From Clostridium phage slur17, in sequence record LN881738.1: 41,318 nt of DNA. One strand, given 5' to 3'. This document shows positions 1-41,318 of the stretch, one piece after another. The notes below the pieces were generated by a model, which had not been told where the DNA came from, made no database searches, and worked only from the letters and a program-made list of their open reading frames with translations. The stretch's first letter is position 1, and each line of letters opens with the position of its first letter. Made by a program: the position numbers and the translations under genes.

Positions 1-595
1 TGTCTGTAACTTCTTTAGTTAGAGTATCTTTAGTAGTATTAACATCACTAATCATGCTGTTTTTAGCGTCTGTAACTTCTGTAACTTTAGAGTCGAAAGT
101 TTCTTTTATACTATTAAATTCTTCGACTCTTTTAATTTCTGCTTCTTTTCTTGCTTCTTCTGTTTCTTTTATTTCTTCTATGCCTTCGACGACTTCTTTT
201 ACTTGATTTATTGTAACGCTGATATAATCCCATTTCGGTTCTTCTGTAATACTGTTTTTATCTATACTTTTCTCTATATTAATCTTTAAAGAAAAAGTAG
301 TAACAACTAAATCATCTTTGTAGAAAGTAAACTCTACTATTACATCCCCCGCAACTTCTGTTATGTTATTTTCTATTATAGTTGTTGCAATAGAATTTTC
401 TATAGTACAGCTCTGATAAACTATTTTCCCGTCTGGTCTTTGAAAATTTGCTATAGCTGTATATCCTGTCAAATCTTTTTCTATATTATTTTCTAATAAA
501 TTAATCTTAAATTCTATTGCATTATCATATTGCTTATATTTTGCAACTTGGTAACTTTTAGTGTTAATATCTACTGTATAAATTCTATCTCTCAA
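1..595 (-). CDS. Tail fibre / baseplate upper protein-like, N-terminal part; 3' end runs off the window start
   Basis: Hand translation of the minus strand: SD AAAGGAG (604-610), TTG start at 593-595, open frame to position 1 (LRDRIYTVDINTKSYQVAKYKQYDNAIEFKINLLENN...EEARKEAEIKRVEEFNSIKETFDSKVTEVTDAKNSMISDVNTTKDTLTKEVTD). Globular N-terminus then a coiled-coil-like repeat region. Not in the ORF track, which does not report window-truncated ORFs. Sits directly downstream of Tal in the tail operon. Confidence 0.5.
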   Translation of the reverse strand, partial: MRDRIYTVDINTKSYQVAKYKQYDNAIEFKINLLENNIEKDLTGYTAIANFQRPDGKIVYQSCTIENSIATTIIENNITEVAGDVIVEFTFYKDDLVVTTFSLKINIEKSIDKNSITEEPKWDYISVTINQVKEVVEGIEEIKETEEARKEAEIKRVEEFNSIKETFDSKVTEVTDAKNSMISDVNTTKDTLTKEVTD

Positions 596-609
596 ATTTA
601 TCACTCCTT

Positions 610-852
610 TTACTCTACCATTTTTGGAGTAAATTCTTTTATTATTTCTTTTTCCTTTAATACAAATTTTCCGTTTTCAATTTTATAATCACGAGGATTT
701 AAAATTTCTGGAATATCCTCGACAACTATTTTATCTAATATTTGCCTATAATCCTCTTCCCTATCTGCAAAGCAGGTATAATCCTGCTCCATCTCTGATT
801 TTATGCAATTATATATTTCTCCAGTTCTCTTGCTGTAAAAAATAGTAACCAT
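610..852 (-). CDS. Hypothetical small tail-module protein
   Basis: 80-aa ORF tightly packed between Tal and the fibre gene on the same strand; no recognisable motif. Confidence 0.45.
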   Translation of the reverse strand: MVTIFYSKRTGEIYNCIKSEMEQDYTCFADREEDYRQILDKIVVEDIPEILNPRDYKIENGKFVLKEKEIIKEFTPKMVE

Positions 853-878: not shown

Positions 879-2678
879 TTAAGCATAAACATAGTATTGT
901 ACTGTAATAAATCCTTCTGAAAAAAAATTCATTCCGAGCCAGTAGCCTATTGTTTGGCTTCCTGACATTTCGTAAGACACACCTCGCACAGATGCAGAAA
1001 GTTCCAATTGTGGATTTGTATCACTTTTTTTTGCTGTCGCTGATGTGCTGAAATAACTTAAACAGCTACCATTTGTTGATGTAGACCTTATTGCACAAGT
1101 TGCTTTAAAATTTTTACCTGCAAATTTTTTTGGTAAGTCTATTATGATTTTTGAATCTTTATAATCAAAGTATGTGTATCCACTTTCTTGAAGATAATAT
1201 GACTCTGTTACATCTGAACCGGTGTAGAATTTTGTATATAGCCCCGAGTCGGTCATTTTTGTAAATCCCTTCCCGCTTATAAGTTTCAATCCTTCATCAT
1301 CAATAAGAACATAAGGACTTACACTATTAAAAGCAATTTTAAAAGTATTTGGGTTAAAATGAACATCTCCAAAACTATCAATTTCCATTGTTTTGACTCC
1401 ATTATCATTTACGACTACCATTTCTCTAGCATTTATATACATGCCTTTTAGCTGTCCAAACCAACCTCTATCTAGCTTCAACTCCCCAATTAATGCATCT
1501 GCTATTGCTCCTTTTTCTATCCACATAGTTCCATCGTCGATTTTTGTAGTCTGTGCTTCTACTTGATTAGAGAACTCTGTAACATTTCCATGCGAGTTTA
1601 CTGCTCTTACTCTGAAATACCAAGTTTGAAAAGGTTCAGCTTGATGAACGTAAGCACTTGCTTGCCCTACAAAAATTCGATTTGTAAAATTAATTGTATC
1701 TGGTACAAAGTCTTTAATTTGAGACGCATAAACTTCATATTTGTAATAAGACTTATTTGTAAATGTCCATGTTAGATTGATAAAAGCGAATAACCCCTCT
1801 GCTGTCAAAGCTGGTGTATTCGGTAAAGTGTCTGGAAACTCTGAATCATCTACTTTGACATTATCAATAGCTTTTTTTACTGTTTCTATTTTATTTTCTA
1901 TATTATTAAACTTGTTATTTAAAAAGTCTAAATGATTTATTAAATCGCCAACTTCAATACTATAGTATTTTCGATTTATTGGGCTATAGTCTGTTTTAAC
2001 TACTCTAGCAGTTGCGTTAATGTTTAAATTAAAATCTCGTATTATCACTTCATCACCTAGATTGACTGTTTCTAGCATTTTGTAATCTTTATAATTTATA
2101 GTTGTAGATAAATCTACGAAGTTGACTTTGTATAAAACTTTTGGTAAATCAACTTGATTGTATTTAAAATAGTCTTTGCATTTTTCTCTTAATTCTTCTT
2201 CAACACTGACCTCATCAGAACTAAAATCTATAGCAACAATCTTTTGGGTAGCATATTTATTCATATTAGGACTAACAATGTATTTTTCTGTCAATGTAAT
2301 CATTTCATCTTCGTAGACCGCATAAGGATATATTTTTGTTACAATATCTTGTGTATCATACTCCGCTTCAAGCCCTGTTATATTTTTTTTATATGCAAGT
2401 AGCACATTTTTACTCTCACCTCTTTGATAATTTAAGAAAACATTAAAATTATCAAAGAAAAGTTTCGCAGTTGGTTCAAATTTTTGAATTAGAGAATTTT
2501 CGCCCTCGCAGATTGCGCTGTAAGGGCTTTGCATTTCAATATTAATAGTATTCCTTGCCTTGATGTCTGAATGTCCTCTAAATCTGTTCTGTTCCTCACA
2601 AGCACGAAAGACTCTTTCTAAAGCTTCTTCGCAAGTAATATCGTTCAATTCCAAACTTTCTATGAAATTATTAAGCAA
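879..2678 (-). CDS. Tail tip protein (Tal-like, tail-associated endopeptidase-type) with FN3-like segment
   Basis: 599-aa ORF immediately after Dit and the tape measure; C-terminal stretch YFRVRAVNSHGNVTEFSNQV resembles a fibronectin type III strand pattern. The frame stays open for about 98 codons upstream of the annotated TTG (to 2999), so the true start is probably further upstream (see findings). Confidence 0.6.
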   Translation of the reverse strand: MLNNFIESLELNDITCEEALERVFRACEEQNRFRGHSDIKARNTINIEMQSPYSAICEGENSLIQKFEPTAKLFFDNFNVFLNYQRGESKNVLLAYKKNITGLEAEYDTQDIVTKIYPYAVYEDEMITLTEKYIVSPNMNKYATQKIVAIDFSSDEVSVEEELREKCKDYFKYNQVDLPKVLYKVNFVDLSTTINYKDYKMLETVNLGDEVIIRDFNLNINATARVVKTDYSPINRKYYSIEVGDLINHLDFLNNKFNNIENKIETVKKAIDNVKVDDSEFPDTLPNTPALTAEGLFAFINLTWTFTNKSYYKYEVYASQIKDFVPDTINFTNRIFVGQASAYVHQAEPFQTWYFRVRAVNSHGNVTEFSNQVEAQTTKIDDGTMWIEKGAIADALIGELKLDRGWFGQLKGMYINAREMVVVNDNGVKTMEIDSFGDVHFNPNTFKIAFNSVSPYVLIDDEGLKLISGKGFTKMTDSGLYTKFYTGSDVTESYYLQESGYTYFDYKDSKIIIDLPKKFAGKNFKATCAIRSTSTNGSCLSYFSTSATAKKSDTNPQLELSASVRGVSYEMSGSQTIGYWLGMNFFSEGFITVQYYVYA

Positions 2679-3007
2679 ATCATACTTAATGTGTTGCGCT
2701 TTTACATTAATATACCCACCTAGATTTTTTGATATATAATAAATTCTAAAAAGCTGGTCTTTGTAGTCGGGCGAAGTATCAGCTTTAATTAATCTATCTA
2801 CTTTTATTTCTTTAAATAAAAAAGAGTCTTCGTAGATAGTAAATTCTAACTCGAAAACTCCGCTTTCTTCCTCTCTAACATGGTCATTTATTACATTCGT
2901 AAGAACACCTAAACCTAAATGCCTAAAATCTGTTTCTTTTTCTTCATATAAAACTAATTTTCCTTTTTGAATAATTAATCCCTCCCTCCAAATTTTAATT
3001 TAAAACT

Positions 3008-3763
3008 TTATAAAATATTCCATCTAGGATTTATTTTTATGCTTTTTATATCCCCTTCCCAGCTAATCTGATTTTCTCCTTCTTCAAGTATGGGAAAGTC
3101 ACTAAAAAGCTTATTATTTTCATTTACAATAATGTTATTTTCTTTGTTTATTCTATATACATTCATCTGTTCGCTATCTATTATTAAGTCGCTTAAAATT
3201 CCATTTTCTGCCACCCCTCTTAGCACTATGCTTTGAGTATTTATTTTTATACTTATGTCCCCTGCTCCTTCTATATAGAGAACAGGTTTTGACTCTCTAT
3301 AGAAATTTGTTATAGTAGCACTCTTTAGATTTAATACATTTAAACTTATAATTTCTTCTTCTGCGTATCTAAAAGGGTAGCAGTCGAATGTTAAAAGACA
3401 TGATGCAAAGTTTTTAAAATTTCTAGTTATATCTAGTTTATTGTTACAGCTTGCTAGATAATAAAAGTCACTATTACTTAAAAAAAGTTTTTTATATGAT
3501 ATATCGCCCTGTAGCCATTTTTTTATTTCTGTTGCAACTTCTTCTATATTACTTTGTCTTGCATCTATATCGCATTCTATTGTAAGCGTAAAATTTTCAA
3601 AACCTTTTTTTAGTAGTAAATCTCCATCTTTGCCTGGCACACTCACTCTTTCAACTTCCATCTGTGGAGCTGATAAGTCGTTTATATTGTATATTTTTAA
3701 ACCAAATTCTCTGCTGTCTCGACCGTTATAAACGAAAAACATAGCTTTATGCCCTCCTCTCAT
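3008..3763 (-). CDS. Distal tail protein (Dit-like)
   Basis: 251-aa ORF directly downstream of the tape measure gene, the canonical Dit position in siphovirus tail modules; call by synteny only. Confidence 0.55.
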   Translation of the reverse strand: MRGGHKAMFFVYNGRDSREFGLKIYNINDLSAPQMEVERVSVPGKDGDLLLKKGFENFTLTIECDIDARQSNIEEVATEIKKWLQGDISYKKLFLSNSDFYYLASCNNKLDITRNFKNFASCLLTFDCYPFRYAEEEIISLNVLNLKSATITNFYRESKPVLYIEGAGDISIKINTQSIVLRGVAENGILSDLIIDSEQMNVYRINKENNIIVNENNKLFSDFPILEEGENQISWEGDIKSIKINPRWNIL

Positions 3764-9271: not shown

Positions 9272-9913
9272 TTAATCTTGTTTTTTAACATCATTTAATA
9301 GTTGTTTATATAGCCTATTAAGCTTAGTTTTATTATCATTATTTAAATGCTCTTTATAATCTATTGCTAAACTAGAGAATTTATAAGCATTGTTCATGCG
9401 AGCCTTTTCAGTTTTTAGTTCTTTCAATTTACTAGACATTTCATTGTAGTATCTAGTCAAAAAGTCATTTATAGTATCAGTCTTTTTTGCTATTATGCTG
9501 TCTAGCATCTGGCTAGGAGATTGACCAGAAAAGTTTAAGTTATCCTCTATGGCAACTAAGGCATATGATTTATCTAACAACATATTATATCTATAAAAAA
9601 ATGTTTTAGGGTCTTTTGTAGTATTAACTATATTAGCACAATCGTTTATTATTTTTAATAGCTGTTGAGCCTGCCTACTACTCTCCGAGCCTCCTGCACT
9701 CTTACCATTTTTCTTTTTACCTCCACCTAGTTGAGTTGTTTCTTGATAATATAAGCCACTTCCAGGAACTCCCAAAGTCGTCGTAGCTTTCCCTTTAGAA
9801 TTAACTGAAACTCTAGCACCTTTAACGCCACCGCTAACACTAACACTATTTTTATTAATATTTAACTTCAATCCACCGCCTAGATTTATGCTTTTTCTAA
9901 ATTTAAATCCCAT
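9272..9913 (-). CDS. DUF4236-like protein, probable moron inserted in the tail module
   Basis: N-terminus MGFKFRKSINLGGGLKLNINKNSVSVSGGVKGARVSVNSKG matches the Gly-rich repeat pattern I recall for DUF4236; followed by Gly/Lys-rich linker and helical C-terminus; has its own downstream hairpin. Confidence 0.5.
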   Translation of the reverse strand: MGFKFRKSINLGGGLKLNINKNSVSVSGGVKGARVSVNSKGKATTTLGVPGSGLYYQETTQLGGGKKKNGKSAGGSESSRQAQQLLKIINDCANIVNTTKDPKTFFYRYNMLLDKSYALVAIEDNLNFSGQSPSQMLDSIIAKKTDTINDFLTRYYNEMSSKLKELKTEKARMNNAYKFSSLAIDYKEHLNNDNKTKLNRLYKQLLNDVKKQD

Positions 9914-9984
9914 AACAATCCCCCCAAATTAAAATATTTATATAATAATTATATATTAATTCGGAAGGTGTAGAGTATATTATT

Positions 9985-10593
9985 TTATAATAAATTACTA
10001 ATATCTCCACCATTTAGCAAAGCTCTTTCAATTTCATTTATTTTCTCAACCTCATTTTTAGGAAGTGGTATAGCATGTATTTTTTTCATTTTCCTATAAA
10101 AATCTTTTTGCGCTTTTGGCATATCTCCACTTATATCCATTGCCCTGTAACCCATAATTTTAACTATCTCAGTATCTTCTTTCAAGGATTTAAATAGCGC
10201 TTTAAATTTCCACCAGTGTAATTTTTCTATGTCTTGCAAGTCAATCCCATATTGCCCTAGAAAAGCGGAATATATATACTCGTCGTCATGGTCATACGAA
10301 TATATTTGCCCCTTACTAGAACCACCCGCACCACTTTGACAACTATCATTAATATCATTTTCTTTTTTCCCGCACGAATAAAACCATATAATTTTATCTA
10401 TAGCCACCGTAGTATTTATAGGTATTACAGGGTAATATAAAGAAAGTGCATTTTTCCCTTTTTCCTCGTCACTTATAGAATCATCTTGTATCAACATTTC
10501 AAACAGAATTGATATTCTAAAATCTGTATTAATTTTATATTCTTCCCCATCAATTTCAACGTTTTCGGGAAGTACATCTATTAACATATTCAT
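9985..10593 (-). CDS. Tail assembly chaperone (Gp15-like)
   Basis: 202-aa acidic protein between major tail protein and tape measure; overlaps the upstream chaperone gene by 1 nt, as usual for the chaperone pair. Confidence 0.5.
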   Translation of the reverse strand: MNMLIDVLPENVEIDGEEYKINTDFRISILFEMLIQDDSISDEEKGKNALSLYYPVIPINTTVAIDKIIWFYSCGKKENDINDSCQSGAGGSSKGQIYSYDHDDEYIYSAFLGQYGIDLQDIEKLHWWKFKALFKSLKEDTEIVKIMGYRAMDISGDMPKAQKDFYRKMKKIHAIPLPKNEVEKINEIERALLNGGDISNLL

Positions 10594-10955
10594 TATTTTT
10601 TAGCTCTACGTTGCGCTCGGTTTGGCGTATACTTTGATACAGCTGAGGCGAAAAATTCTTCCCCCTCTTGTTTCTGTCTATTAACTTCTTCTATTAATTC
10701 AAAAAAAGCATTTGAGCATACCTTTAAATTTCTCTTATCTCCAAACATTTTATTTGATGTGCCTTCCCCGAAAATATCGTCAAAGCATTTAAAAATTAAA
10801 TTACATATATCTCTAATCATTTCATAACCTTTGGTTGCCTCTTTCTCAACTTTTCCCGTTTCAGTAATAGTCAAGCCTATTGTTTTTTCAATGTTTTCAT
10901 ATTCATCAGCATCATATATATCAAAATCTTTTAATTCTATATTATTAATTAACAT
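10593..10955 (-). CDS. Tail assembly chaperone
   Basis: 120-aa acidic protein immediately downstream of the major tail protein gene; synteny. Confidence 0.5.
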   Translation of the reverse strand: MLINNIELKDFDIYDADEYENIEKTIGLTITETGKVEKEATKGYEMIRDICNLIFKCFDDIFGEGTSNKMFGDKRNLKVCSNAFFELIEEVNRQKQEGEEFFASAVSKYTPNRAQRRAKK

Positions 10956-11012: not shown

Positions 11013-11813
11013 CTACTCTTTTACTGTAACAGTAGCTATTCCTGCCTTTTTCGCTTTATTGCCCGAATTAACCTCTACTATCAATATTTTATCCCCTTCA
11101 TTTGCTGTTATATCCTCAGTACCATCCCAAGTAGTATATCCAACTGAACAATCAGCATCTAATGCTGGAACTGAAACACTTGCCCCAGTCTTATATTTAT
11201 AACTATTTCCACTTTCAAGACCTGGAGTAACGGTTACTTTTGTATCCCCTGTGTTAGTACCCGCAATTGAATTTACAGTTAAAATCTTTAAACTTTCAGC
11301 TGGTGGTGCTTCTTCCCCAACCTCCGTGAAAATCTTTGTCTGAGTGTTAAATTCTCCATCTACAAAATTACCAACGCTATTTAAGTTCCCGCTGACAATA
11401 ATTGTTTCTCCTCCTGCTCCTGCAAGCCCAGAGACTTCAACTGACACTCTAAATTTTCTAGCCTTAAAAGTATTATCTTTTCCTTCAACTGGTAAAAATA
11501 ATTCTACTCTTAAATAATCTCTTTCAGCATCTGCGCCAGTTGCCTGGTCTCTACCTATCTTATAAAGTTCCATTATAGCCTTTTCGCTTTTAATTAAATC
11601 CGACTCAAACGGGAATTGTGTTTGGTAAGATTTTATAGCACTAGTACTGTTTCTATCGTTTATATATGTTTTAGAGTCACTTTGCGCGGATGGGTTCTCG
11701 TCTAATGTATTAAATCCTGCCCCCATCAACTCCCAAGAATTTTGTCCATCGTCTCCTAAAATTCCTAAATAATCCGCAATTTTATATCTTTGTATCGTTT
11801 CTATTCCTGCCAT
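11013..11813 (-). CDS. Major tail protein
   Basis: 266-aa protein between the head-tail joining genes and the chaperones; Thr/Gly/Val-rich C-terminal part consistent with an Ig-like decoration domain. Confidence 0.6.
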   Translation of the reverse strand: MAGIETIQRYKIADYLGILGDDGQNSWELMGAGFNTLDENPSAQSDSKTYINDRNSTSAIKSYQTQFPFESDLIKSEKAIMELYKIGRDQATGADAERDYLRVELFLPVEGKDNTFKARKFRVSVEVSGLAGAGGETIIVSGNLNSVGNFVDGEFNTQTKIFTEVGEEAPPAESLKILTVNSIAGTNTGDTKVTVTPGLESGNSYKYKTGASVSVPALDADCSVGYTTWDGTEDITANEGDKILIVEVNSGNKAKKAGIATVTVKE

Positions 11814-13369: not shown

Positions 13370-14443
13370 CTACCCTCTCGAAATAATTCTAGCGATAGGT
13401 ATAGCCTTATGGTTTATATAAGTTTTAGACCCATTCGAACTATCATTCACAAGCTCCCAATTTGCTCCGTTTTTCAGTTCTGCATCAGTTGGAGATGCTG
13501 TTGCAACTGCTTTTTTAGTAAAGCTAATACCATATGGCGCAAATACTTTTCTTTGTCTACTATATAAGTAATCTTCTCCACCATTTTTACCTGGAGCCCT
13601 ATCCATTTCATATGGGACTTTTGCACCAACATCCTCGAAGTCAATAGAATTTTCCCCAAGCACATATGTTGTATACTCTGTGTATCCATCATTTGAACCC
13701 TCTGAACTTTCAGCGACCTCTCTAGTTGGCATATTGTCATCAATTAAGACTAATTTGCCACCCCAAGTTCCTAACTTCATCTCCCTTTGAATACCTTGTG
13801 GGTCAGTATATTTTAACCTAGCAACAAGATTTAAATTTTCTAAGTTAGTTGATATAACACTGTGCATTATAACAAGTGCAAATTTTTCTTTATTATCTCC
13901 ACAAGCTTTTTGAGTTGCACTATTAAGAGTTTCGGCTTTAACCTTTTGATTTTCTGTTTCTGCTTCTTTCGTTATATCAAAAGTATGATTGTCAACAAAT
14001 TCTAAATTTTTCGCCCCTGTCATTGCGAAAATACCTTCCAGAACAGCTAACAAAGTTTTTTGGTCTATATTATCCCAATATTTAGCAACTTGATTTCCTA
14101 CATTCTCCATAAAAGGAACTCCGCCGGTTACGTCCTGGCTAAAGTCTTTTTCCACCCACGATTTAGCTCTACCAACAACAATTACAGACTGCGAAAAGGT
14201 CTTTGTTGTAGTTGCTACTATATCCGTTTGTCCGTCGTAATTGACTGGGTCGCCATCAATCAAGCCAAGCATTGGAATAGTTGCATAATTTGCTCCCGAT
14301 TGGGCTGAAAACATAGCCTTTAAATCGTCCCTTCTTCTTATTGCTCCAGACTTTATTAATTCGTCCCTATTTAGATTAGGTACAGTCTCAACGTATTTTC
14401 CAAACACTTCTCCATTAAAAATTTTTGAATCAAATAAACTCAT
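13370..14443 (-). CDS. Major capsid protein
   Basis: 357 aa; follows the coiled-coil scaffold gene and precedes the connector genes. Confidence 0.7.
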   Translation of the reverse strand: MSLFDSKIFNGEVFGKYVETVPNLNRDELIKSGAIRRRDDLKAMFSAQSGANYATIPMLGLIDGDPVNYDGQTDIVATTTKTFSQSVIVVGRAKSWVEKDFSQDVTGGVPFMENVGNQVAKYWDNIDQKTLLAVLEGIFAMTGAKNLEFVDNHTFDITKEAETENQKVKAETLNSATQKACGDNKEKFALVIMHSVISTNLENLNLVARLKYTDPQGIQREMKLGTWGGKLVLIDDNMPTREVAESSEGSNDGYTEYTTYVLGENSIDFEDVGAKVPYEMDRAPGKNGGEDYLYSRQRKVFAPYGISFTKKAVATASPTDAELKNGANWELVNDSSNGSKTYINHKAIPIARIISRG

Positions 14444-15026: not shown

Positions 15027-15157
15027 AAAAACCTCCTGTTTTCATTTACAATTACGCTTTTTTACGTGGTAGCATCACATATTGTCTAACTTTTTACGTC
15101 GCTTAGTAGACATCTATATAAATGAATTAAGTATTTTAAGCATAAAAATAAGTCTTA

Positions 15158-25571: not shown

Positions 25572-25584
25572 TCCTTTTTAGTTT

Positions 25585-26489: not shown

Positions 26490-26555
26490 TTTCCAGCCTC
26501 CTTATTTATTTTTTACTTTTTTTAATTGGTTTAGCGTAGCCGTCAAAGTACGCTT

Positions 26556-26910: not shown

Positions 26911-27264
26911 ATGAATACTAGAATTAGAGACTTGCGAATTGCAGAGGGGCTATCTCAAATCGAATTTGGGAACAAGCTAGGAATGACTAGACACGAAATT
27001 TACAATCTTGAAAGTGGAAGAACACGAATAAAAGAAAGTGATTTAAAATTAATAACTTCAACATTTAAGGTAAACGAAAAATGGCTAAAAACAGGCGAAG
27101 GCGATATGTATACTTTTTCAAACAATAACTTAATAACAGCAGAAGTCTTATGCGCAATAGATAAGAATGAACGTCTTGCTAAAGCAATGTTAAAATTTAG
27201 CAAGTTAAATGACAAAGAATTAGAGGCAATGGAAAAGCTACTAGAATTATTTCAAAAAGAATAA
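26911..27264 (+). CDS. XRE-family HTH transcriptional regulator (CI-like repressor candidate)
   Basis: 117 aa; LRIAEGLSQIEFGNKLGMTRHEIYNLESGRT is a typical Cro/C1 HTH; the only plus-strand gene in this region. Confidence 0.85.
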   Translation: MNTRIRDLRIAEGLSQIEFGNKLGMTRHEIYNLESGRTRIKESDLKLITSTFKVNEKWLKTGEGDMYTFSNNNLITAEVLCAIDKNERLAKAMLKFSKLNDKELEAMEKLLELFQKE

Positions 27265-30753: not shown

Positions 30754-30759
30754 ATAAAT

Positions 30760-31156: not shown

Positions 31157-31309
31157 ATGGATAATTTTTTACTTAATGTATTAGCTGGTGTTATAGCTAG
31201 TTTAATATTCTATATAATTAGCAAATTATTTAGACAAGTAAAAAACCACTCTGCGCAAAAGAGTGGTTGGGAATTTGATTTGAGAATCAAATTCAAAAAG
31301 TTTAAATAA
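31157..31309 (+). CDS. Small membrane peptide, type I toxin-like (50 aa)
   Basis: Hand-verified ORF MDNFLLNVLAGVIASLIFYIISKLFRQVKNHSAQKSGWEFDLRIKFKKFK with strong SD AGGGAGGTG 6 nt upstream; one hydrophobic helix then a Lys-rich tail; two hairpins in its 3' part. Absent from the ORF track (shorter than 60 aa). Confidence 0.5.
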   Translation: MDNFLLNVLAGVIASLIFYIISKLFRQVKNHSAQKSGWEFDLRIKFKKFK

Positions 31310-32129: not shown

Positions 32130-32312
32130 ATGGAAAAAGAAAAAAGAGATTTAAAGTTTAACTTTCACAAAGGTGGGAGTGGGTCGTTTACTCCTAGAAT
32201 GAGTGTTCCTAAAAAATGGGCTGATGAAATGGGCATAACAAGAGAAAACCCTAATGTTACGGCAACATTCGAGGGCGACAGGATAATAATTGAAAAGGCT
32301 AAGAATGAATGA
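32130..32312 (+). CDS. AbrB/MazE/SpoVT-type DNA-binding domain protein
   Basis: 60 aa; TPRMSVPKKWADEMGITRENPNVTATFEGDRIIIEKA fits the looped-hinge-helix swapped-hairpin fold pattern; good SD AAGGAG. Confidence 0.6.
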   Translation: MEKEKRDLKFNFHKGGSGSFTPRMSVPKKWADEMGITRENPNVTATFEGDRIIIEKAKNE

Positions 32313-32399
32313 CTTTTTCTATAAAAGAAGGTTGCTTTTTTTCTTAGCCTTCTTTTTTTTAAATTTTACTATAATATAAAAATATTACTGTAATATTAT

Positions 32400-32585
32400 A
32401 AAAATATTATTTTAGTATTGTATATACAATATTTTAGTATTTTTAATATAATATATTGGTATTGTAAAAGCAATATGTAAATATTGTATTTATATTATTT
32501 GAATATTGTAATTAACAATATTAATATATTGTTGCAATATTATAAAAACAATACTACAATATTATTATAATATTATAAATATAAT
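32400..32585. repeat. AATATTGT-type repeat array upstream of parA (centromere/operator-like)
   Basis: Many direct and inverted copies of AATATTGTA / TACAATATT, e.g. AGTATTGTATATACAATATT, GAATATTGTAATTAACAATATT. Confidence 0.55.
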
Positions 32586-32591
32586 AATGAG

Positions 32592-33410
32592 GTGGAGAAA
32601 ATGGCTAATACAAAGCTACTTACGTACTTTAACATAAAAGGAGGTATCTATAAGACAACAACGTCTATAATGACAGCGTATGAACTTGCGAAAGATAAAG
32701 ATAAAAAAATACTCTTATGGGACTTAGATGTGCAAGCAAATCTAACACAATATGTTTATGAAATAAATCATAATGATAATACTACATTAGATATTTTAAA
32801 AGGGATTAGTGCTAATGATGCAATAGTCAAGTCACCTAATGAAAATTACATTAATGTAGACTTAATTCCTTCTGACATACAAATGGCTAGATTTGAACAA
32901 GAGCTATCACCTTTACCAGCCAGAGAAAAATTTTTAGCTCGCTGGTACATGCAAAACTTTAATACTTTGAGTGAGTATGATTATATTATCTGTGATTTAT
33001 CTCCACGCTACGATTTGACAGCTAAAAATGTGCTTTTCTTAGCAGATAGTATAATTATTCCAATTCAAGATAAAAACATTTCTTCTTTAAGAGGAGCAGA
33101 ATTATTTAAACAACTCTGGGATGTTGATAGAACCTATTTTGATAAGGAGGATAATATAAAAAGTACTATTTTAGTTGGATTTGAGAAGAAGAAAACTCAA
33201 ATTAGCGATACTTTCGATTCTTATCTGGAAGGGTTTAACGATATGAGAGATATTATGTTAGATACATACATTAGAAAAAATGAGTTTATAGAGAAGGCAC
33301 TATTAAAAAAACTATCTCTAACAGATTATACAAAAATAACTAAAGAGCATTTCAGCAGACAGGAATTTACTAATATGTTAGAAGAATTGAAAAGAAAAGG
33401 AGTGTTATAG
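32592..33410 (+). CDS. parA: ParA/Soj-family partition ATPase
   Basis: 272 aa; deviant Walker A KGGIYKTTT, A' motif LLWDLDVQAN, Walker B YIICDLSP. Confidence 0.85.
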   Translation: MEKMANTKLLTYFNIKGGIYKTTTSIMTAYELAKDKDKKILLWDLDVQANLTQYVYEINHNDNTTLDILKGISANDAIVKSPNENYINVDLIPSDIQMARFEQELSPLPAREKFLARWYMQNFNTLSEYDYIICDLSPRYDLTAKNVLFLADSIIIPIQDKNISSLRGAELFKQLWDVDRTYFDKEDNIKSTILVGFEKKKTQISDTFDSYLEGFNDMRDIMLDTYIRKNEFIEKALLKKLSLTDYTKITKEHFSRQEFTNMLEELKRKGVL

Positions 33411-33743
33411 ATGCCAAGTTTCAACAGAGACCTTTTAGTTGATAAAGAAAAACCGATTTTGAAAAATGGAACAATCGTACAAAATGATTCTACAACTACA
33501 GACAATAAGACATTAAACATATATAATCTAGTTAATAAGAAAAGTAAAAAAGTGACTATGAGTGCAACGCTTGATGAGGAGCTTGTAAACAAATTAAAAT
33601 CTTTTTCTATTGATATGAACAGCGACGTTAGTAAATTATTAAGTGATATACTAACTCAAATTTTATCTGATGTCACTATAAAAGAAGAGAATTTAAATAT
33701 ATACAATGAGAGAAATAGAAGAAATAAGACTAAGAAAAAGTAA
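33411..33743 (+). CDS. Putative centromere-binding partition protein (ribbon-helix-helix-like)
   Basis: 110 aa; start codon directly follows the parA stop; VTMSATLDEELVNKLKSFSIDMNSDVSKLLSDIL is consistent with a beta-strand plus two helices; basic C-terminal tail. Confidence 0.45.
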   Translation: MPSFNRDLLVDKEKPILKNGTIVQNDSTTTDNKTLNIYNLVNKKSKKVTMSATLDEELVNKLKSFSIDMNSDVSKLLSDILTQILSDVTIKEENLNIYNERNRRNKTKKK

Positions 33744-33749
33744 ATAATA

Positions 33750-33860
33750 TTATATTTATATTGTTTAGATATTACTTAAATATTGTATATATAATATTTA
33801 AGTAATATTTTAATATTATTATTACAATATATTAATATTGTTTAAATAATATGTTTTAAC
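33750..33860. repeat. Second AATATTGT-type repeat array, downstream of the partition genes
   Basis: AAATATTGTATATATAATATTT and TACAATATATTAATATTGTTTAAA; same motif family as the array upstream of parA. Confidence 0.5.
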
Positions 33861-34168: not shown

Positions 34169-34177
34169 ACATTAAAA

Positions 34178-34210
34178 AACAGTGTATTTATTGAATACAC
34201 TGTTTTTATT
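34178..34210 (+). terminator. Intrinsic terminator
   Basis: ACAGTGTATTTATTGAATACACTGT hairpin followed by TTTTTATTT. Confidence 0.55.
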
Positions 34211-34400: not shown

Positions 34401-34871
34401 TTAATTTTCAATTACATTTTGCAATTCTTGTTTACAACTTTCAATGCCTTTTTGTAATTCTTCTAAAAAAACTGATGTGCTATCGTCTATATTTCTTTCA
34501 GCAATTTCTTCGAAATTTTCTTTATTGAATTTTTTATAACTATCCCAATCCAAATTTTCCCACTCATTTTCACACCAATTTTCAAATTCTTCATAATCGT
34601 TTACGTAACAAATTTCTCCAAGCATATCGTTTAAATGAGTTGGCGCTTGATTTAATGTGAAAATATTAATTTCTTTGTCATCACCTAAAAGTTTAGCCCA
34701 AGTTTGAACTGCTATCGCTTCAACTTTTCCTTGTATATCGATATAAATTTTTATATTATTAGTCTCTTTGATTAAACAACTTTCTTTAAAAGCTTTTATA
34801 GCTTCTTCCTCTATTTTATCTATATTCATATCTATAACTCTTAAAAATCTTCTAGCTTTTTGTTTATTCAT
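34401..34871 (-). CDS. Hypothetical acidic protein (third gene of uncharacterised operon)
   Basis: 156 aa, Trp/Glu-rich (ENWCENEWENLDWDSY); no motif recognised. Confidence 0.5.
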   Translation of the reverse strand: MNKQKARRFLRVIDMNIDKIEEEAIKAFKESCLIKETNNIKIYIDIQGKVEAIAVQTWAKLLGDDKEINIFTLNQAPTHLNDMLGEICYVNDYEEFENWCENEWENLDWDSYKKFNKENFEEIAERNIDDSTSVFLEELQKGIESCKQELQNVIEN

Positions 34872-34890: not shown

Positions 34891-35397
34891 TTAGTTGTTT
34901 TTATACATAACAGTTCTTTCGCTCTTTTCAATTTCTGTAAGATACTCTAAAAATTCTTTAATTTCTTGTTTGTTTATGCCTGTAAATTCGTGTCTAATTT
35001 CGCATTTTTCAACGCGTGTAGAATATTTCTCTTCTAATTTATAAAATCCAGGTCTTACACTAGCTATAAGGTCACTTTCTACATTTTTGCTGCATAAGCT
35101 ATTTACATATATTAAAATGTTTTCTATATTTTCTATGTCTACTTTGTCGCCTTTTGAATAATAAAAATTAAATCTCAATCTTATTCCTATGCTACTGTTA
35201 ATTTCACCATGCCCCCACGTTTCAATGTTTAAACTTTTTCCAACTGTTTCTTTAACGATTCCCACGTGACTGTTTGCACAATCTTTAAGACTTATATCAA
35301 ATATATCATTGTTGATTTTATTAATCTCTTTTTCTATCATTTCAACATTCTCTTTATTAACTTTTAAATTTAATATTGTACTAAAATCTATATTCAT
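34891..35397 (-). CDS. Hypothetical protein (second gene of uncharacterised operon)
   Basis: 168 aa; no motif recognised. Confidence 0.5.
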   Translation of the reverse strand: MNIDFSTILNLKVNKENVEMIEKEINKINNDIFDISLKDCANSHVGIVKETVGKSLNIETWGHGEINSSIGIRLRFNFYYSKGDKVDIENIENILIYVNSLCSKNVESDLIASVRPGFYKLEEKYSTRVEKCEIRHEFTGINKQEIKEFLEYLTEIEKSERTVMYKNN

Positions 35398-35475
35398 ACT
35401 TCAATCCTCCATTTATTTTATATATTAAAATTATAGCATTCGACGGTGAACTATATTTGTACCAATCCAAAATTT

Positions 35476-36306
35476 TTAACACTCTACACCATCTCTAAAT
35501 ATTTGGTATGCAATTTCTATTTTTCTTTCAGCACTTTCTATTTTTCTATAGTTTTCAATCTGCTTCTTTTTAATGTCTGCAAATCCATTTTTATAAAATT
35601 GTGCATTTTTTTGTATTAATGTTTCTATTATGTATTTTTTAGCTTTCTCTATATATTCTGTGCTAGTAGCTTGTTTTACTGCGTCGTCAAATATTTCAAC
35701 TATTTCAAGTACATTTTCTTTTATTTCATTAGACCAATTATCATTAAAATTTATTTCTTTAGCTATTTTTTTAGCTTCTTCATAGCTTATACTACCTTCA
35801 ACTTTTCTAAGTTTATGAGACGCTTGAGTTTCTCCTTTTAAAAATTTTAAATTTCCAATTTCTTCTGTAAATTGAGACTCTCGAAAAATCTGGTTTATTT
35901 GAAACGCTTTTTGATTTAAAGAATTATATTTTAAAACATTTCTAAAATTATCTATAAAGAACTTAGCATCCTCTATGTTGCTTATTGCTTCTCTTATTCT
36001 TTCAAATTTTCTTTTACATCTTTCTGTCATTTCTTCTATACTCATATCTTTGATTTTGTAGTCTTCATTTTTTATTCTTTCTATTTTACTTTTTTCTAGT
36101 TCGTTAGTTAAATTTAAAATGTCTGTTCTTATATCATTAGCCCAAATAATTTGTTTTTCTGACCCTTTTAATTCTTTCATTTTTATATCCCCCTTTTTAT
36201 TTAAGAAGGATAAGCAAAGACTAAATTGTACTTTATAATCTACATCATTATATTTTTCTTTAATTTCTCTTGCTATTTTATGTGCTTCTTTAAATAAAGT
36301 TTTCAT
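35476..36306 (-). CDS. Hypothetical protein (first gene of uncharacterised operon)
   Basis: 276 aa, largely helical and Lys/Glu-rich; N-terminus MKTLFKEAHKIAREIKEKYNDVDYKVQFSLCLSFL; no catalytic motif recognised. Confidence 0.5.
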   Translation of the reverse strand: MKTLFKEAHKIAREIKEKYNDVDYKVQFSLCLSFLNKKGDIKMKELKGSEKQIIWANDIRTDILNLTNELEKSKIERIKNEDYKIKDMSIEEMTERCKRKFERIREAISNIEDAKFFIDNFRNVLKYNSLNQKAFQINQIFRESQFTEEIGNLKFLKGETQASHKLRKVEGSISYEEAKKIAKEINFNDNWSNEIKENVLEIVEIFDDAVKQATSTEYIEKAKKYIIETLIQKNAQFYKNGFADIKKKQIENYRKIESAERKIEIAYQIFRDGVEC

Positions 36307-36745: not shown

Positions 36746-37552
36746 CTATCTATCAATAAAATCTAGTGCCTTGTAAAGTGTATCAAACCTATCATTACCC
36801 TTTATCATAGTAAATTTTTCTTTAGTCATAGAACCAATCTTTTCACATGCTCCACCCCCAACAACATAAAGATTTTGTGTCTGACCTGGTACATAATCTT
36901 TTATATCACATATTAATATTTTACCATCATTATAGCCCCAGCCAACTACAGTTGCGGGGATTTTGTCAACTTCTCCATCATAAACGATTGTATGTTTATA
37001 CATTTTCTTATCCTCACTATTTTCTTTATTATCTATTGTCTTATTTAAAATACCTTCTGCTATTAACTTAGCGACTATGTCTTTATGTCTAATATAATAG
37101 TCTGTATCTGCTTTACTATCTACGAAACACACTTCTATTAATATCGCTGGAGCTTTTGTATGACTAAGCCAGTAAAGACCTCTTGCGTCCGATTTTGCGC
37201 CTCTATTTTTAAATATTGTTGCTAGTTTCTCGTTGACTCTTTCGGCATATACCTTACCATTATTAGTTTTATATATCGTCTCTGTACCCATGACATTTAA
37301 TGTCGTATGGTCAGCGTTAAAATGTATTTGTACAGCTACATCTACATTTTGCTTATTGGCTATTTGACATTGCTCTGCTAAGTAGTTATTAGACTTATCT
37401 ACCTTACCACTATACACAGTAGCCCCACCCTTTTTAAGCCATTTAACAACCAAATCCATCAATATCCTATTTTCTGTTCCTTCATTTATATACCCTGTTG
37501 CTCCTGTTCCTTTTCCTGTTAGCGTATGCCCTGCTGTTAGTGCTACTCTCAT
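36746..37552 (-). CDS. Endolysin, N-acetylmuramoyl-L-alanine amidase (Amidase_3 type) with C-terminal domain
   Basis: 268 aa; MRVALTAGHTLTGKGTGA...ILIEVCFVDSKADTDYY matches the zinc amidase pattern; directly follows the holin-like gene. Confidence 0.85.
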   Translation of the reverse strand: MRVALTAGHTLTGKGTGATGYINEGTENRILMDLVVKWLKKGGATVYSGKVDKSNNYLAEQCQIANKQNVDVAVQIHFNADHTTLNVMGTETIYKTNNGKVYAERVNEKLATIFKNRGAKSDARGLYWLSHTKAPAILIEVCFVDSKADTDYYIRHKDIVAKLIAEGILNKTIDNKENSEDKKMYKHTIVYDGEVDKIPATVVGWGYNDGKILICDIKDYVPGQTQNLYVVGGGACEKIGSMTKEKFTMIKGNDRFDTLYKALDFIDR

Positions 37553-37816
37553 TTAAAGACCTTCTTTCTGTAACATGTCTTTTATGTCTGTTACATCTTC
37601 TTTGATTTCTTCTACGTCCGTTTTCATTGCTCCCATTTCAACAAGTATATTCTTATTTATCTCTTGTTGCTGTGTAGATAGTTCTATGAAATTTTCTACT
37701 GTTTTTTTATACATATCTCTATCTTCTTTTTTCTCCTGCATAGTGTTTTTGAACAGCAAAGCGCATAATATCCCTACTGCTCCTAGTCCACTTAGTTGTG
37801 TTATTAATTCTTCCAT
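37553..37816 (-). CDS. xhlA: XhlA-like holin/hemolysin-family small membrane protein
   Basis: 87 aa; one N-terminal transmembrane helix (LSGLGAVGILCALLF) followed by a charged coiled coil; abuts the endolysin start. Confidence 0.55.
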   Translation of the reverse strand: MEELITQLSGLGAVGILCALLFKNTMQEKKEDRDMYKKTVENFIELSTQQQEINKNILVEMGAMKTDVEEIKEDVTDIKDMLQKEGL

Positions 37817-37901
37817 AACTTTCCTCCTAATTTTGATTATTTATTTTTTATATAAAAAAAGATTAGACTATTAATCTAATCTTTTAGATGACTTATAAAC
37901 A

Positions 37902-39752
37902 TTAAATTGCTTGATACATTGCGTAAGTAAAATAACCGTCTCCGCTTTGGTCATATCTAGCCCCGCCTAATGTTATAAACTTTTTGGTTTCATCTTTATA
38001 GCCATTTCCTCTGCCTGCTTCTATACTTGTATTGTAGCCATGATACACAATTCCATAATAACTATTACCTTTATATCCATAACAATAAGTTATGCCTACA
38101 TAAGTACTATTAATAGTTTGCGGTGGGTTATCATCAGCATCCGCAAAGCCTGTGATAGTTCTAAAATAAGCAGTACTTCCTTGTATTGTGTTCTGTATAT
38201 TATTTTTGTAAGTTTGTAAAGTTGAATTTTTGCTAATTAATATGCTTTTAGCTGTATTACTTTTAACCATTCTGTTAAGTGCAAGTCCTGTAAGTGTTAT
38301 TTTGGTCATAGCCGTTGAGCTATTTGCAATTATGCCCATTGCTGTTGTATTATTTACAAAAACACTTATAGACGTATCGTTATTTGCAACTGTCGACATA
38401 GCTTGTGCGTTATTTGCAATTATGCCCATTGCTGTTGTATTATTTGCAATAGTAACGTTATTTTCTGAAATAGTGAGCATAGCATTGAAAGCAGTAGAGT
38501 TATTTGCTATCTTAGTAAAAGCAGTAGTTTTATTTACTAAAATATTTATAGCTGTTGTACTTTTCATAAAAGCATTTAATGACACTGTTTTACTGAAAAT
38601 ACTTTCTATAATTCCCACTCGGTCACCAACTTTATTTACTATAATAGAATTATTTGCAAAAGTTGCCATTGCGATTGAACTTTCTAAAATTGCATCCGAA
38701 ATTTTTATTTTTTCCTCAATATCTCGTTGTGATATATTACGTGTGGTTTCCATACCATCATAATTTTTTACTGCATTTTTTAAAATCGGGAATATTTCTT
38801 CATTATAAGTTATTGCCATAATTTGACCTTTACCAGAAGCAATATTTGATTTTATTGTATTTATATAATTTAAAGAAGTTTGTAAATTATACTTCATTTC
38901 TAATAAATTAGGGATTATTTTTTCAACAGTAACATTATTAGTTAATATTTTATTTATGCTATTTTGGTTTTGCACTAATACTTTTGTAGCTTCTAAGTCA
39001 TTAAATATTTCCATTACGGAGTTTTCGTTACTTGAAATTTGTGTCATAGCTTCATCACTATTTATAATCGCATCCCTAATCACATTATTTTTTAAAATTG
39101 CTCTAATGACTGGTGACTCTGTTGTAACTCTTAAAATATATTGACCTAATAAATCCATAGCATTTGAACTTGCTACAACTGCGTCCATGCTTGATTTACA
39201 CATAGTTAAAGCTACTATTGCATTACTATTATTAAGTATTGCATTAGTAGCTTCCACATTTGCTAATATTTCTTCTATAGTTGTAAGATTTTCTAAATCA
39301 GTATTATCTAAGCTAAAAGTAGAATTAAACCATGCTCCTATAGTTGACTTTTCTTGTTCTCTTGTAACATATCTATCATACCCTGCTTTAAATTTTTCCT
39401 CTAATGAATTATAATGCTCTATAGTCATTTCTTTTACTACATTATCAGCATTTCCTAAGCTAAATATATCTGTTCTATAAAAGGCATTTAATTGTTCCCC
39501 TAGCTTAGTGCTTTTATTAAATAAATTATCAATATCAGTTTCTGAAAAAGCTGTGTAAACTGTTTCTCTTATTCCTCTATCAGAAAATAAATATAAACTA
39601 TTTAAATATAATTCTTCCCATATCCTAGCATTTCCAATAAACAGCACATAACTATCTAATCCATTTAGTTTTATGTCTTGCAAATAACTTAAAAAATTTA
39701 GTGGCTCGCCTTGCAAGTCACTATTCACTTTGTATGTCTCCGCCCAACTCAT
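37902..39752 (-). CDS. Tail fibre / receptor-binding protein with tandem 19-20 aa Asn/Thr/Ala repeats
   Basis: 616 aa; repeats such as NNTTAMGIIANNAQAMSTVANNDTSISVF; Gly/Tyr-rich C-terminal globular region; start overlaps the upstream fibre stop by 1 nt. Confidence 0.6.
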   Translation of the reverse strand: MSWAETYKVNSDLQGEPLNFLSYLQDIKLNGLDSYVLFIGNARIWEELYLNSLYLFSDRGIRETVYTAFSETDIDNLFNKSTKLGEQLNAFYRTDIFSLGNADNVVKEMTIEHYNSLEEKFKAGYDRYVTREQEKSTIGAWFNSTFSLDNTDLENLTTIEEILANVEATNAILNNSNAIVALTMCKSSMDAVVASSNAMDLLGQYILRVTTESPVIRAILKNNVIRDAIINSDEAMTQISSNENSVMEIFNDLEATKVLVQNQNSINKILTNNVTVEKIIPNLLEMKYNLQTSLNYINTIKSNIASGKGQIMAITYNEEIFPILKNAVKNYDGMETTRNISQRDIEEKIKISDAILESSIAMATFANNSIIVNKVGDRVGIIESIFSKTVSLNAFMKSTTAINILVNKTTAFTKIANNSTAFNAMLTISENNVTIANNTTAMGIIANNAQAMSTVANNDTSISVFVNNTTAMGIIANSSTAMTKITLTGLALNRMVKSNTAKSILISKNSTLQTYKNNIQNTIQGSTAYFRTITGFADADDNPPQTINSTYVGITYCYGYKGNSYYGIVYHGYNTSIEAGRGNGYKDETKKFITLGGARYDQSGDGYFTYAMYQAI

Positions 39753-41318
39753 TAACTCACCTCTTCTTTTATTTCTTCTATTTGATTACCTTTAAAAGTC
39801 GTTTTTACTTTACTTACTAATACATTATCTATATATTTTTCGTCTACTATAGTCCCATCTGCATTAAATTTAGTTATAGTTTTACTAACCGAGTCTAAAA
39901 TATCTGTTATAGAGCCGTCTGAATTAAAAGTCGTGCTTTTTTTAATGTAATCTAACTCTTTCGGTTTTTCTAATAACTCATTCCATGTAACTTTTCCTTT
40001 TGACGCTTTCCCCGTGTCTTCTCCATTTATAAACCAATTACCGTTTTCGCCGATTGCTGGAGTATAACCTTGTTCCCCTCTAAGCTCTGTATATATATAT
40101 TCCGTTTGTCCTTCTTCTCTAATACCTAGCTGACTTCCATTCCAATTAAATTCTAATTTATTTCCTGTCGCTCCTTTTAGATTTGTATAGCTATAGTCCT
40201 CTTGACCTTCTATTCTAACGCCTAGCTCCGTACCATCCCAACTAAATTCAATGCTATCGCCTTTTTGACCTTTCAAATCTGTATAAGTATAATTCTCCTG
40301 TCCTTCTATCCTTACACCTAGTCGTGTGCCATCCCATGCAAATTCGATATTGTCACCTTTGAGGTCTATATACTTATAATCTAATTCGTATTGTTGCCTA
40401 ACGCCTAACTGTGTGCCATCCCAATTAAATTCTAGGTTCTTGCCGTCCACGCCCGCTAGAGAACCTAAGTCTTCCCATTTAGTTTGATATATATAAATAT
40501 TTCTCCCTATAATCCAGCAATCTCCGATAGTAGGGTCTAATGGTAAGTTATCTATAGAATCTAATTTTCCTAAAATCCTCAAAGATGCCCCTCTAGCTGG
40601 TTTTTGGGTATCTATATTATTAATCCACCAGTTTCCATTTTCTCCTATTGTTGGAGTATAACCCTGCTCCCCTTTCAATTCTGTATAACTATAATTTTCT
40701 TGACCTTCTATCTTTATACCTAATCGTGTGCCATTCCAATTAAATTCAATACTATCACCTTTATCGCCTTTTTGACCTTTTAAATCTGTATAAGTATAAT
40801 TCTCCTGTCCTTCTATCCTTATACCTAGTCGCGTGCCATCCCAATTAAATTCTAAGCCATCTCCATTTTCACCCTTTATTTTTATGTCAGGAACTTTGAC
40901 CCAATTAGTGTTGTCCCAAACATATAAATCAATTTGGTTTTCTATTGTTGCGCTTTTTACAAAGTAAGCATCACTTAAAGTTGGATTGACTGGAAGTGCT
41001 GATATATTATCTAAACTTCCTTTTATTTCTATTCCTACCCCTTTTAACTCTTCTTTTGTGGGGATTGCATTAATAGCGTCTGTAACTTCTGTCTGCATAG
41101 TTTCTTTAGCTGTAGTTACTTCGCTAATCATAGTATTTTTAGCTGTTGTAACTTCCGCTTTAACTGTGTTAACTTCGTCTATTAATGTTGTTTTAGTAGT
41201 ATTAACATCACTAATCATGCTGTTTTTAGCGTCTGTAACTTCTGTAACTTTAGAGTCGAAAGTTTCTTTTATACTATTAAATTCTTCGACCCTTTTACCT
41301 TCTGCGATTTCTAATTCT
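39752..41318 (-). CDS. Tail fibre protein with six ~30-aa tandem repeats; N-terminus lies beyond the window end
   Basis: The frame is open from 41318 down to the stop at 39752; the ORF track starts it at an internal Met (41218). Contains coiled-coil heptad-like units (EVTDAKNSMISDVNTTK) and six copies of (L/I)EFNWDGTRLGIRIEGQENYTYTDLKG. Confidence 0.6.
   Translation of the reverse strand, partial: ELEIAEGKRVEEFNSIKETFDSKVTEVTDAKNSMISDVNTTKTTLIDEVNTVKAEVTTAKNTMISEVTTAKETMQTEVTDAINAIPTKEELKGVGIEIKGSLDNISALPVNPTLSDAYFVKSATIENQIDLYVWDNTNWVKVPDIKIKGENGDGLEFNWDGTRLGIRIEGQENYTYTDLKGQKGDKGDSIEFNWNGTRLGIKIEGQENYSYTELKGEQGYTPTIGENGNWWINNIDTQKPARGASLRILGKLDSIDNLPLDPTIGDCWIIGRNIYIYQTKWEDLGSLAGVDGKNLEFNWDGTQLGVRQQYELDYKYIDLKGDNIEFAWDGTRLGVRIEGQENYTYTDLKGQKGDSIEFSWDGTELGVRIEGQEDYSYTNLKGATGNKLEFNWNGSQLGIREEGQTEYIYTELRGEQGYTPAIGENGNWFINGEDTGKASKGKVTWNELLEKPKELDYIKKSTTFNSDGSITDILDSVSKTITKFNADGTIVDEKYIDNVLVSKVKTTFKGNQIEEIKEEVS

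Follow-up and report, generated by a model that had tools for sequence, protein, structure and literature searches.

Some temperate tailed phages, such as P1 and N15, persist as extrachromosomal replicons in low or multiple copy number, with ParA-type partition and addiction modules, and P1 also encodes the tyrosine recombinase Cre, which resolves dimers and does not serve to integrate the phage. P1 is a myovirus with a RepA/oriR replicon; N15 is linear and carries a protelomerase. The plasmid lifestyle of the Clostridioides difficile phage phiCD38-2 has been known from the literature since 2011 and was taken up in many later studies, in which the prophage is described as an episomal, multicopy circular plasmid with ParA ('multiple copies of phage episome'), and the phiCD38-2 class is a common extrachromosomal element in sequence type 1 (ST1) genomes (PMC6807378). 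CDHS-1, a Leicester isolate named CDSH1 in GenBank, is a siphovirus of which lysogens have been isolated, and a therapeutic candidate against ribotype 027 (PMC8619979). Here we analysed the record LN881738.1 (Clostridium phage slur17), all 41,318 nt of which are referred to below as the window. The window is almost certainly the temperate siphovirus CDHS-1, linearised inside its only long tandem repeat and lacking 301 nt there, and a phage-plasmid that persists as an episome instead of integrating. An initial annotation had already recognised a phage-plasmid from the raw sequence.

Gene order in the CDSH1 record is the same as in the window, but that record starts at terS, whereas the window starts in the tail-fibre gene and on the opposite strand. 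phiCD38-2 (HM568888 / NC_015568), the type of Leicestervirus CD382, is colinear and has the lysis, acrIB2, partition (par), toxin–antitoxin (TA), replication, early and recombinase genes in common with the window, albeit with a tape measure protein of 1716 aa versus 1767 aa. The plasmids pCd23_2 and DSM 104450 unnamed1 are the same element, annotated as plasmids rather than phages, with a fourth fibre repeat in pCd23_2. The ~33-kb phage-plasmids of the phiCD506/phiCDHM11-14/JD032 type, also deposited as plasmids, share the helicase, TA, par and acrIB2 block at 89–97% identity, but possess other structural modules and, between helicase and parA, a 3′–5′ exonuclease/DNA polymerase gene without counterpart in the window. 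The likeness to P1 and N15 is one of function, and a relationship in sequence would not be expected; the window ParA is of the short type without an N-terminal helix–turn–helix (HTH), and the presumed addiction module is of type I (RNA antitoxin). The element itself is already known, as an identical GenBank record (CDHS-1), a defined species and a well-studied type phage, and the residual novelty lies in a repeat cassette linked to acrIB2 and in smaller annotation points.

Identity, completeness and circular map

A whole-window megablast search against 50,697 phage records, which the initial annotation had proposed as a check, returned CDSH1 (KU057941.1, 41,619 bp) at 100% identity and phiCD38-2 at 94.5–99.5%. 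String comparison revealed that the window is exactly the reverse complement of CDSH1 1–20436 followed by that of CDSH1 20738–41619; it is thus a rotated reverse complement in which all 41,318 bases are identical (100%) to CDSH1. The window covers 99.3% of the CDSH1 genome, and the sole missing part is the 301 nt at CDSH1 20437–20737, which sit within the tail-fibre gene (CDSH1 19833–22304), inside a tandem repeat with a period of 228 nt, 2.5 copies and 99% matches. As the initial annotation had proposed for the late operon, this gene wraps around the window ends: on the minus strand, it begins at position 604, leaves the window at base 1 and continues from 41318 to 39752. A direct end-to-start join yields a fibre gene of 2171 nt (2171 mod 3 = 2), in which the frame is broken and many stops follow; the window is therefore near-complete, not a closed circle. 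Of the original wording, 'complete or near-complete', only the second part holds. Termination of both ends in the sole long near-perfect repeat is what the break of a short-read contig would give.

The repeat lies in the N-terminal stalk of the tail fibre, where near-perfect tandem copies of 228 nt (76 aa) occupy window positions 1–142 and 41192–41318 (CDSH1 20295–20864). Its copy number varies among isolates, with three core motifs in CDSH1, phiCD38-2 and the DSM 104450 plasmid and four in pCd23_2. This variation, together with the nearly equal length of pCd23_2 (41,319 bp), is what could be said for a closed circular genome whose tail-fibre gene simply carries fewer repeat copies than that of CDSH1. 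Such a genome is nevertheless very unlikely: the direct join runs straight into stop codons, the window would still be 73 nt short of a version with one repeat fewer, and the remainder is 100% identical to CDSH1, in which the 301 nt exist.

CDHS-1 broken within its repeat, our preferred reading, also fits the comparison with complete records. The four such records start differently, CDSH1 at terS, phiCD38-2 28 nt upstream of terS, pCd23_2 in a tail-protein gene and the DSM 104450 plasmid in the helicase region, and all are colinear with the window as circular permutations. The window spans the ends of all four, and each of them spans the window ends with 301 nt (529 nt in pCd23_2); the genome map is therefore circular. 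Identity multiplied by coverage against the window amounts to 96.05% for phiCD38-2, 96.2% for pCd23_2 and 98.9% for the DSM 104450 plasmid, in alignments of two to four colinear blocks without inversions or rearrangements. For phiCD38-2, the accessory half is 99.5% identical and the head-to-tail-assembly region 89–95%. The species criterion of the International Committee on Taxonomy of Viruses is at least 95% nucleotide identity across the whole genome to a member. NCBI taxonomy places both CDSH1 and phiCD38-2 under the species Leicestervirus CD382, to which the window belongs by identity (100% to CDSH1 and 96.05% to phiCD38-2) and by colinear gene order.

Episomal maintenance and the recombinases

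The exact 202-aa tyrosine recombinase of the window was looked up in public assemblies, giving 273 blocks. The longest contigs carrying it measured <2, 2–5, 5–10, 10–20 and 20–50 kb in 8, 16, 29, 42 and 178 blocks, respectively; a contig >50 kb occurred in 0 of the 273 (longest 42,150 bp). None of the contigs that were read had a host flank, the feature that the initial annotation had singled out as speaking against its view, and the neighbouring genes read were all phage genes. For an integrated prophage, chromosomal contigs of far greater length would often be expected. The element is deposited as a circular plasmid with two closed C. difficile genomes (pCd23_2, NZ_CP037803; DSM 104450 unnamed1, NZ_CP021446), and parts of it recur in 44 C. 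difficile plasmid records. Together with the literature on phiCD38-2, these observations bear out the episomal lifestyle suggested at the outset.

An integrated prophage cut from a bacterial chromosome, with plasmid-like genes that are incidental, would accord with the two site-specific recombinases encoded, one of them an 'integrase' in GenBank, and with the CDHS-1 paper, which assumes all C. difficile phages to be able to integrate (PMC8619979). We nonetheless consider integration highly improbable. There is no host DNA at the window ends, which both interrupt the same phage gene and are connected in each of four independent records; the recombinase gene is confined to contigs of at most 42,150 bp; the element is a separate circular replicon in closed genomes; and phiCD38-2 is an episome according to the literature. 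Furthermore, neither the 202-aa tyrosine nor the 189–198-aa serine recombinase has the architecture of a lambda-type integrase, with its arm-binding/core-binding N-terminal domains, or of a large serine integrase (~450–600 aa).

The tyrosine recombinase had initially been described as a truncated integrase. It is indeed a recombinase, but not a truncated one: the conserved 202 aa comprise a full catalytic domain, without remnant of an N-terminus. In alignment with archaeal XerA/XerC-like proteins, the protein matches their C-terminal catalytic domain and retains the R, HxxR, H and Y residues, its sequence is identical in many assemblies, and just 177 nt are available upstream of the gene, which therefore leaves no room for a decayed N-terminal domain. 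From its sequence we take it to be a conserved, catalytically complete enzyme without an N-terminal DNA-binding domain. It is close in size to FimB/FimE-type invertases, to which there are weak near-full-length matches. The distinction is relevant insofar as CDHS-1 is a phage-therapy candidate whose literature speaks of integration, whereas the enzyme called an integrase is in fact a short recombinase, intact, by which the element appears never to be integrated.

The second enzyme, called a resolvase from the outset, is a small serine recombinase that aligns end to end with the Gin invertase and with the Tn3 and gamma-delta resolvases. Its start is likely the ATG at 21034, which is preceded by a Shine–Dalgarno sequence and gives a protein of 189 aa. 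By analogy with P1 Cre and plasmid resolvases, one or both recombinases might resolve multimers. No inversion occurred among the five genomes compared. Published observations include a shift of the cwpV phase switch in phiCD38-2 lysogens and one of the flagellar switch caused by a phiNCKUH-21 regulator.

Partition was likewise anticipated by the initial annotation, and ParA is clear by Pfam and PHROGs, although it falls below the cut-offs for the PrgP, ParA and SopA models. Homologues of the 110-aa protein encoded downstream occur in Clostridioides only, on contigs ≤42.8 kb. The par operon is bracketed by two phased clusters that hold 27 of the 112 RTATTRT heptamers in the window, and these arrays are plausible candidate centromeres. 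Across 19 phage-sized C. difficile plasmids, the par module is 95–100% identical. A published idea that the parA region derives from plasmid pCD630 was not reproduced by megablast, in which small plasmids matched only ~130–140 nt near window positions 31457–31596.

In a lysogen, a CI-type repressor would silence the early and late operons while the genome is kept as a multicopy circular episome. ParA and the small, putatively DNA-binding protein encoded downstream would presumably act on the two heptamer arrays flanking their operon. The type I TA system would kill cells that lose the element, as published for phiCD38-2 gp33, which has been assigned to a TA system helping to maintain the episome (PMC7699646).

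Several points weigh against this interpretation. The episomal state has been shown experimentally for phiCD38-2, not for CDHS-1 itself, and the CDHS-1 paper refers in general terms to integrases and integration (PMC8619979). Assignment of the 110-aa protein as a putative ParA partner rests on a weak Arc-like match (phrog_3180, E=6e-5), and its structure model is uninformative, with a predicted local distance difference test (pLDDT) score of 61.8, a predicted template modelling (pTM) score of 0.24 and one long helix, for the monomer of a probable obligate dimer. Searches around the recombinase genes for res/dif-like sites or invertible segments returned only weak AT-rich matches. Lastly, Pfam, NCBIfam and PHROGs searches of the window proteins revealed no Rep, DnaA-like, primase or initiator family and no origin, but only a superfamily 2 (SF2) helicase, a single-stranded DNA-binding protein (SSB) and a 'replication terminator-like' protein; functionally, the annotation is least complete at the replicon.

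C. difficile type I TA modules combine a hydrophobic toxin of ~50 aa, charged at the C-terminus, with an antisense RNA that overlaps it. Around the type I toxin gene, additional small features are apparent. A 69-nt segment 3′ of the gene is duplicated (31387–31455 and 31594–31662). A second small open reading frame (ORF) at 31762–31890 (42 aa) is basic at the N-terminus and hydrophobic at the C-terminus, comes with a strong ribosome-binding site (RBS) and a terminator of its own, and may be a second small-toxin module. A strongly hydrophobic 53-aa ORF at 31965–32126 (+), which ends 3 nt before the AbrB/MazE-like gene, is unannotated in CDSH1, has no obvious RBS and may not be real.

A repeat cassette beside acrIB2

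AcrIB2 is a validated inhibitor of type I-B CRISPR systems, and its operon is reported to be highly transcribed in lysogens (PMC10732046). Its expression would protect the episome from the host type I-B system, as published. The window gene matches phiCDHM13 gp28 and gp29 as two pieces, in agreement with the AcrIB2 paper. A related class of inhibitors consists of RNA anti-CRISPRs (Racr) and solitary repeat units, which are repeat mimics beside acr genes; clostridial-type I-B units have been catalogued among them (Camara-Wilpert et al. 2023, PMC10651486).

Some 35 nt past the acrIB2 stop, on the same strand, lies the first of three degenerate CRISPR-repeat-like units, which succeed each other at 65–68-nt spacing and are followed by a terminator. 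All three align over the full length of the Rfam family CRISPR-DR14, albeit below threshold (23.8, 21.3 and 18.2 bits, the gathering score being 45). The canonical C. difficile repeat, GTTTTATATTAACTATGTGGTATGTAAAT, was derived from real prophage arrays in IMG/VR, and the window unit agrees with it at 24 positions with one inserted base (~80% identical). A degenerate pattern covering both the window unit and the canonical repeat occurs three times in the window, in each case at the cassette, versus 0.05 expected. We also sampled 20 acrIB2 loci, located solely by their Acr protein. A unit lies ~45 nt beyond the gene in 19 of them, and the remaining contig runs into adapter sequence within the unit; all homologues sampled, at protein identities as low as 50%, carry units, from one to four in number. 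The last ~70 nt of the IMG/VR contig IMGVR_UViG_3300045988_079708 are Illumina Nextera adapter (CTGTCTCTTATACACATCT...), an assembly contaminant.

A genuine adaptive CRISPR array was considered and rejected. The two cassette 'spacers' are alike, having ~24 nt in common; in the phage database, significant matches to them fall only at the homologous acrIB2-adjacent locus (~24 records from sipho-, myo- and large phiCD211-like phages); and the canonical leader of C. difficile arrays is absent at the cassette. A 'spacer' target inside the phage flanked by a protospacer-adjacent motif was also rejected, the best matches being equal to those of shuffled controls. It is possible, though on balance doubtful, that the cassette is instead an RNA-based anti-CRISPR, either a repeat decoy or a CRISPR RNA-like molecule, co-transcribed with acrIB2 in a combined protein-plus-RNA operon. 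In line with known RNA anti-CRISPRs, it mimics the host repeat and lies beside an acr gene on a mobile element without cas genes or leader. Should the cassette be functional, the only type I-B anti-CRISPR locus known from this important pathogen would also have an RNA component.

Compared with Racr (PMC10651486), the cassette type seen here has one to four tandem units and conserved inter-unit sequences, and the exact window unit does not occur in the searchable text of that catalogue. The phiCD211 record annotates the same spot as a CRISPR repeat region, which the mSphere paper on AcrIB2 calls a 4-spacer array targeting other phages (PMC10732046). Its 'targets' could simply be homologous loci; if so, the '4-spacer array' would be a cassette matching its own homologues. 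Repeats beside the acrIB2 of phiCD38-2 were reported neither in PMC10732046 nor by Hargreaves et al. 2014, who applied CRISPRfinder to phiCD38-2, and a text search of the literature for the repeat sequence gave no match. We found no description of the acrIB2-linked cassette for the phiCD38-2 group, in which it may be new.

Virion, lysis and early genes

The window has ~30% G+C, genes mostly on the minus strand and no tRNA genes (Table 1). PHROGs assignments recovered packaging, head, connector, tail, fibre and lysis families, and the virion, packaging and lysis set is complete. With Pfam and NCBIfam included, the searches corroborate that every module of a temperate phage is present once, as stated initially; the accompanying statement that host genes are lacking also withstood analysis, every protein tested falling in a phage protein family. 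The temperate nature rests on the CI-type repressor and on the isolation of CDHS-1 lysogens (PMC8619979). The siphovirus assignment agrees with the presence of tape measure, Dit and Tal (tail spike) proteins and with the absence of sheath and baseplate(-wedge) families among the tail-region proteins (PHROGs); the morphology itself is taken from the literature, in which CDHS-1 is so described. Upon induction, the terS/terL-driven late operon would give rise to a virion with a long non-contractile tail, with lysis via the holin and amidase.

Table 1. Features of the window (LN881738.1, 41,318 nt) in order of position; strand '.' marks features without assigned strand.
Feature	Position	Strand	Evidence and remarks
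Tail-fibre gene, 5′ part, cut by window start	1..604	-	CDSH1 CDS 19833-22304
Tail spike/endopeptidase, 697 aa, apparent ATT start	879..2972	-	tail-protein profiles from residue 6
Distal tail protein Dit	3008..3742	-	phrog_33 E=5e-44
Tail tape measure protein, 1767 aa	3863..9166	-	phrog_1272 E=0
Tail assembly region: DUF6673, Gp15-like and DUF4236 proteins	9272..10955	-	
Probable major tail protein, C-terminal immunoglobulin (Ig)-like (SbsC_C) domain	11013..11813	-	operon position; phrog_3099; PF18316 E=2e-13; role inferred
Four head-tail connector/completion genes	13034-13366, 12598-13032, 12244-12591, 11816-12247	-	phrog_541, 3366, 556, 3266
Major head protein	13370..14443	-	phrog_247 E=1.5e-100
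Head scaffolding protein	14454..15026	-	phrog_194 E=3e-35
GP20-b RNA motif, upstream of scaffold gene	15053..15112	-	Rfam RF03003, 55 bits vs gathering score 36.2
Minor head protein	15783..17006	-	phrog_581 E=5e-130
Portal protein (SPP1-type)	17007..18419	-	phrog_533 E=6e-148; PF05133
Terminase large subunit	18420..19742	-	phrog_2 E=2e-35
terS, terminase small subunit	19729..20436	-	phrog_509 E=9e-79; CDSH1 CDS 1-708; CDSH1 record begins here
Small serine recombinase (resolvase/invertase type)	20465..21034	-	PF00239 + HTH; Gin E=2e-22
Short tyrosine recombinase, 202 aa, catalytic domain only	21499..22107	-	PF00589 profile 11-170 of 172
Sigma-70 region-4-like transcriptional regulator	22285..22857	-	phrog_36 E=3.5e-29; PF04545 just below cut-off
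Early operon	22869..26738	-	includes 'replication terminator-like' protein 25585-25989, SSB 23483-23809 and many proteins of unassigned function
CI-type repressor (HTH_3/HTH_19), divergent from early operon	26911..27264	+	Pfam
Two large palindromic hairpins, (TA)n loops, terminator-like on both strands	27694-27761, 27957-28016	.	
SF2 (DEAD/ResIII) helicase, 721 aa	28472..30637	-	PF04851, PF00270; sole evident replication enzyme
Type I toxin, phiCD38-2 gp33 orthologue	31157..31309	+	strong RBS; phrog_738; antisense terminator-like hairpin 31268-31244
Small AbrB/MazE/SpoVT-like protein	32130..32312	+	weak PF04014; Prokaryotic Genome Annotation Pipeline (PGAP) name in related plasmids
Upstream centromere-like array, 18 RTATTRT heptamers, 11-nt phase	32371..32586	.	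inverted relative to downstream array
ParA partition ATPase, 269 aa, without N-terminal HTH	32601..33410	+	PF13614 E=4.5e-33; phrog_164
Candidate centromere-binding partner of ParA, 110 aa (possibly ribbon-helix-helix)	33411..33743	+	
Downstream centromere-like array, 9 RTATTRT heptamers, 11-nt phase	33747..33859	.	
Bidirectional terminator hairpin between convergent genes	34175..34207	.	
Three degenerate type I-B CRISPR-repeat-like units, 28-29 nt	34364-34336, 34296-34268, 34231-34204	-	two conserved inter-unit sequences
acrIB2, anti-CRISPR against type I-B	34401..34871	-	identical to phiCD38-2 gp27; tblastn 100% to phiCD38-2 26681-27148
Two genes of unknown function upstream of acrIB2	34891..36306	-	phrog_6775, phrog_6809; described in PMC10732046
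Endolysin (N-acetylmuramoyl-L-alanine amidase)	36746..37552	-	phrog_435 E=5e-101
Holin	37553..37816	-	phrog_4884 E=4e-56
Second tail fibre/tail protein, 616 aa, with 30-nt repeats	37902..39752	-	phrog_7809 E=0
Tail-fibre gene, 3′ part, cut by window end	39752..41318	-	301 nt of tandem repeat between parts

The tail-spike frame is open from 2999, but contains no ATG, GTG or TTG until 2678, a conserved stretch of ~100 codons (window 2679–2999, minus strand). An ATT at 2972 lies 7 nt after GGAGGGAGGG, and the gene may use an AUU start. Tail profiles align from residue 6 of the protein so defined, which makes RefSeq phiCD38-2 gp18 (590 aa) look N-terminally truncated. The missing canonical start codon and the lack of a recognised replication initiator could suggest a defective phage-like plasmid that has lost particle production, a notion that merits next to no credence, given that the sequence is identical to a phage that has been isolated, lytically propagated and used in infections, with a 20-min latent period (PMC8619979), that the structural genes are all intact, and that the spike extension is conserved and fits the tail-protein profiles.

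Several smaller points concern the annotation. RefSeq names phiCD38-2 gp02 (NC_015568.1 723–2045) 'portal protein', as does PGAP in pCd23_2, whereas PHROGs identify the window orthologue as terminase large subunit (phrog_2), the actual portal protein being encoded by the gene that follows. The GP20-b motif in the 5′ leader of the scaffold gene is without annotation in the CDSH1 and phiCD38-2 records, and Rfam at gathering threshold returned nothing else in the window. The S-layer SbsC-type Ig-like domain on the probable major tail protein is of some interest, as the receptor of these phages is the S-layer protein SlpA.

Between helicase and toxin gene, at 30659–31156, there is no credible ORF; in the related ~33-kb phage-plasmids the exonuclease/polymerase gene lies between helicase and parA. 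Promoter-like sites occur near the repressor at 26805–26777 (−) and 26859–26887 (+). The two palindromes, with arms of 34 nt (91%) and 30 nt (100%) and (TA)n centres, are 263 nt apart in the 800-nt gap between repressor and helicase operon and are flanked by A-runs and T-runs. They resemble bidirectional terminators, their flanks are duplicated, and positions 27840–27917 are similar to the 3′ end of the helicase gene.

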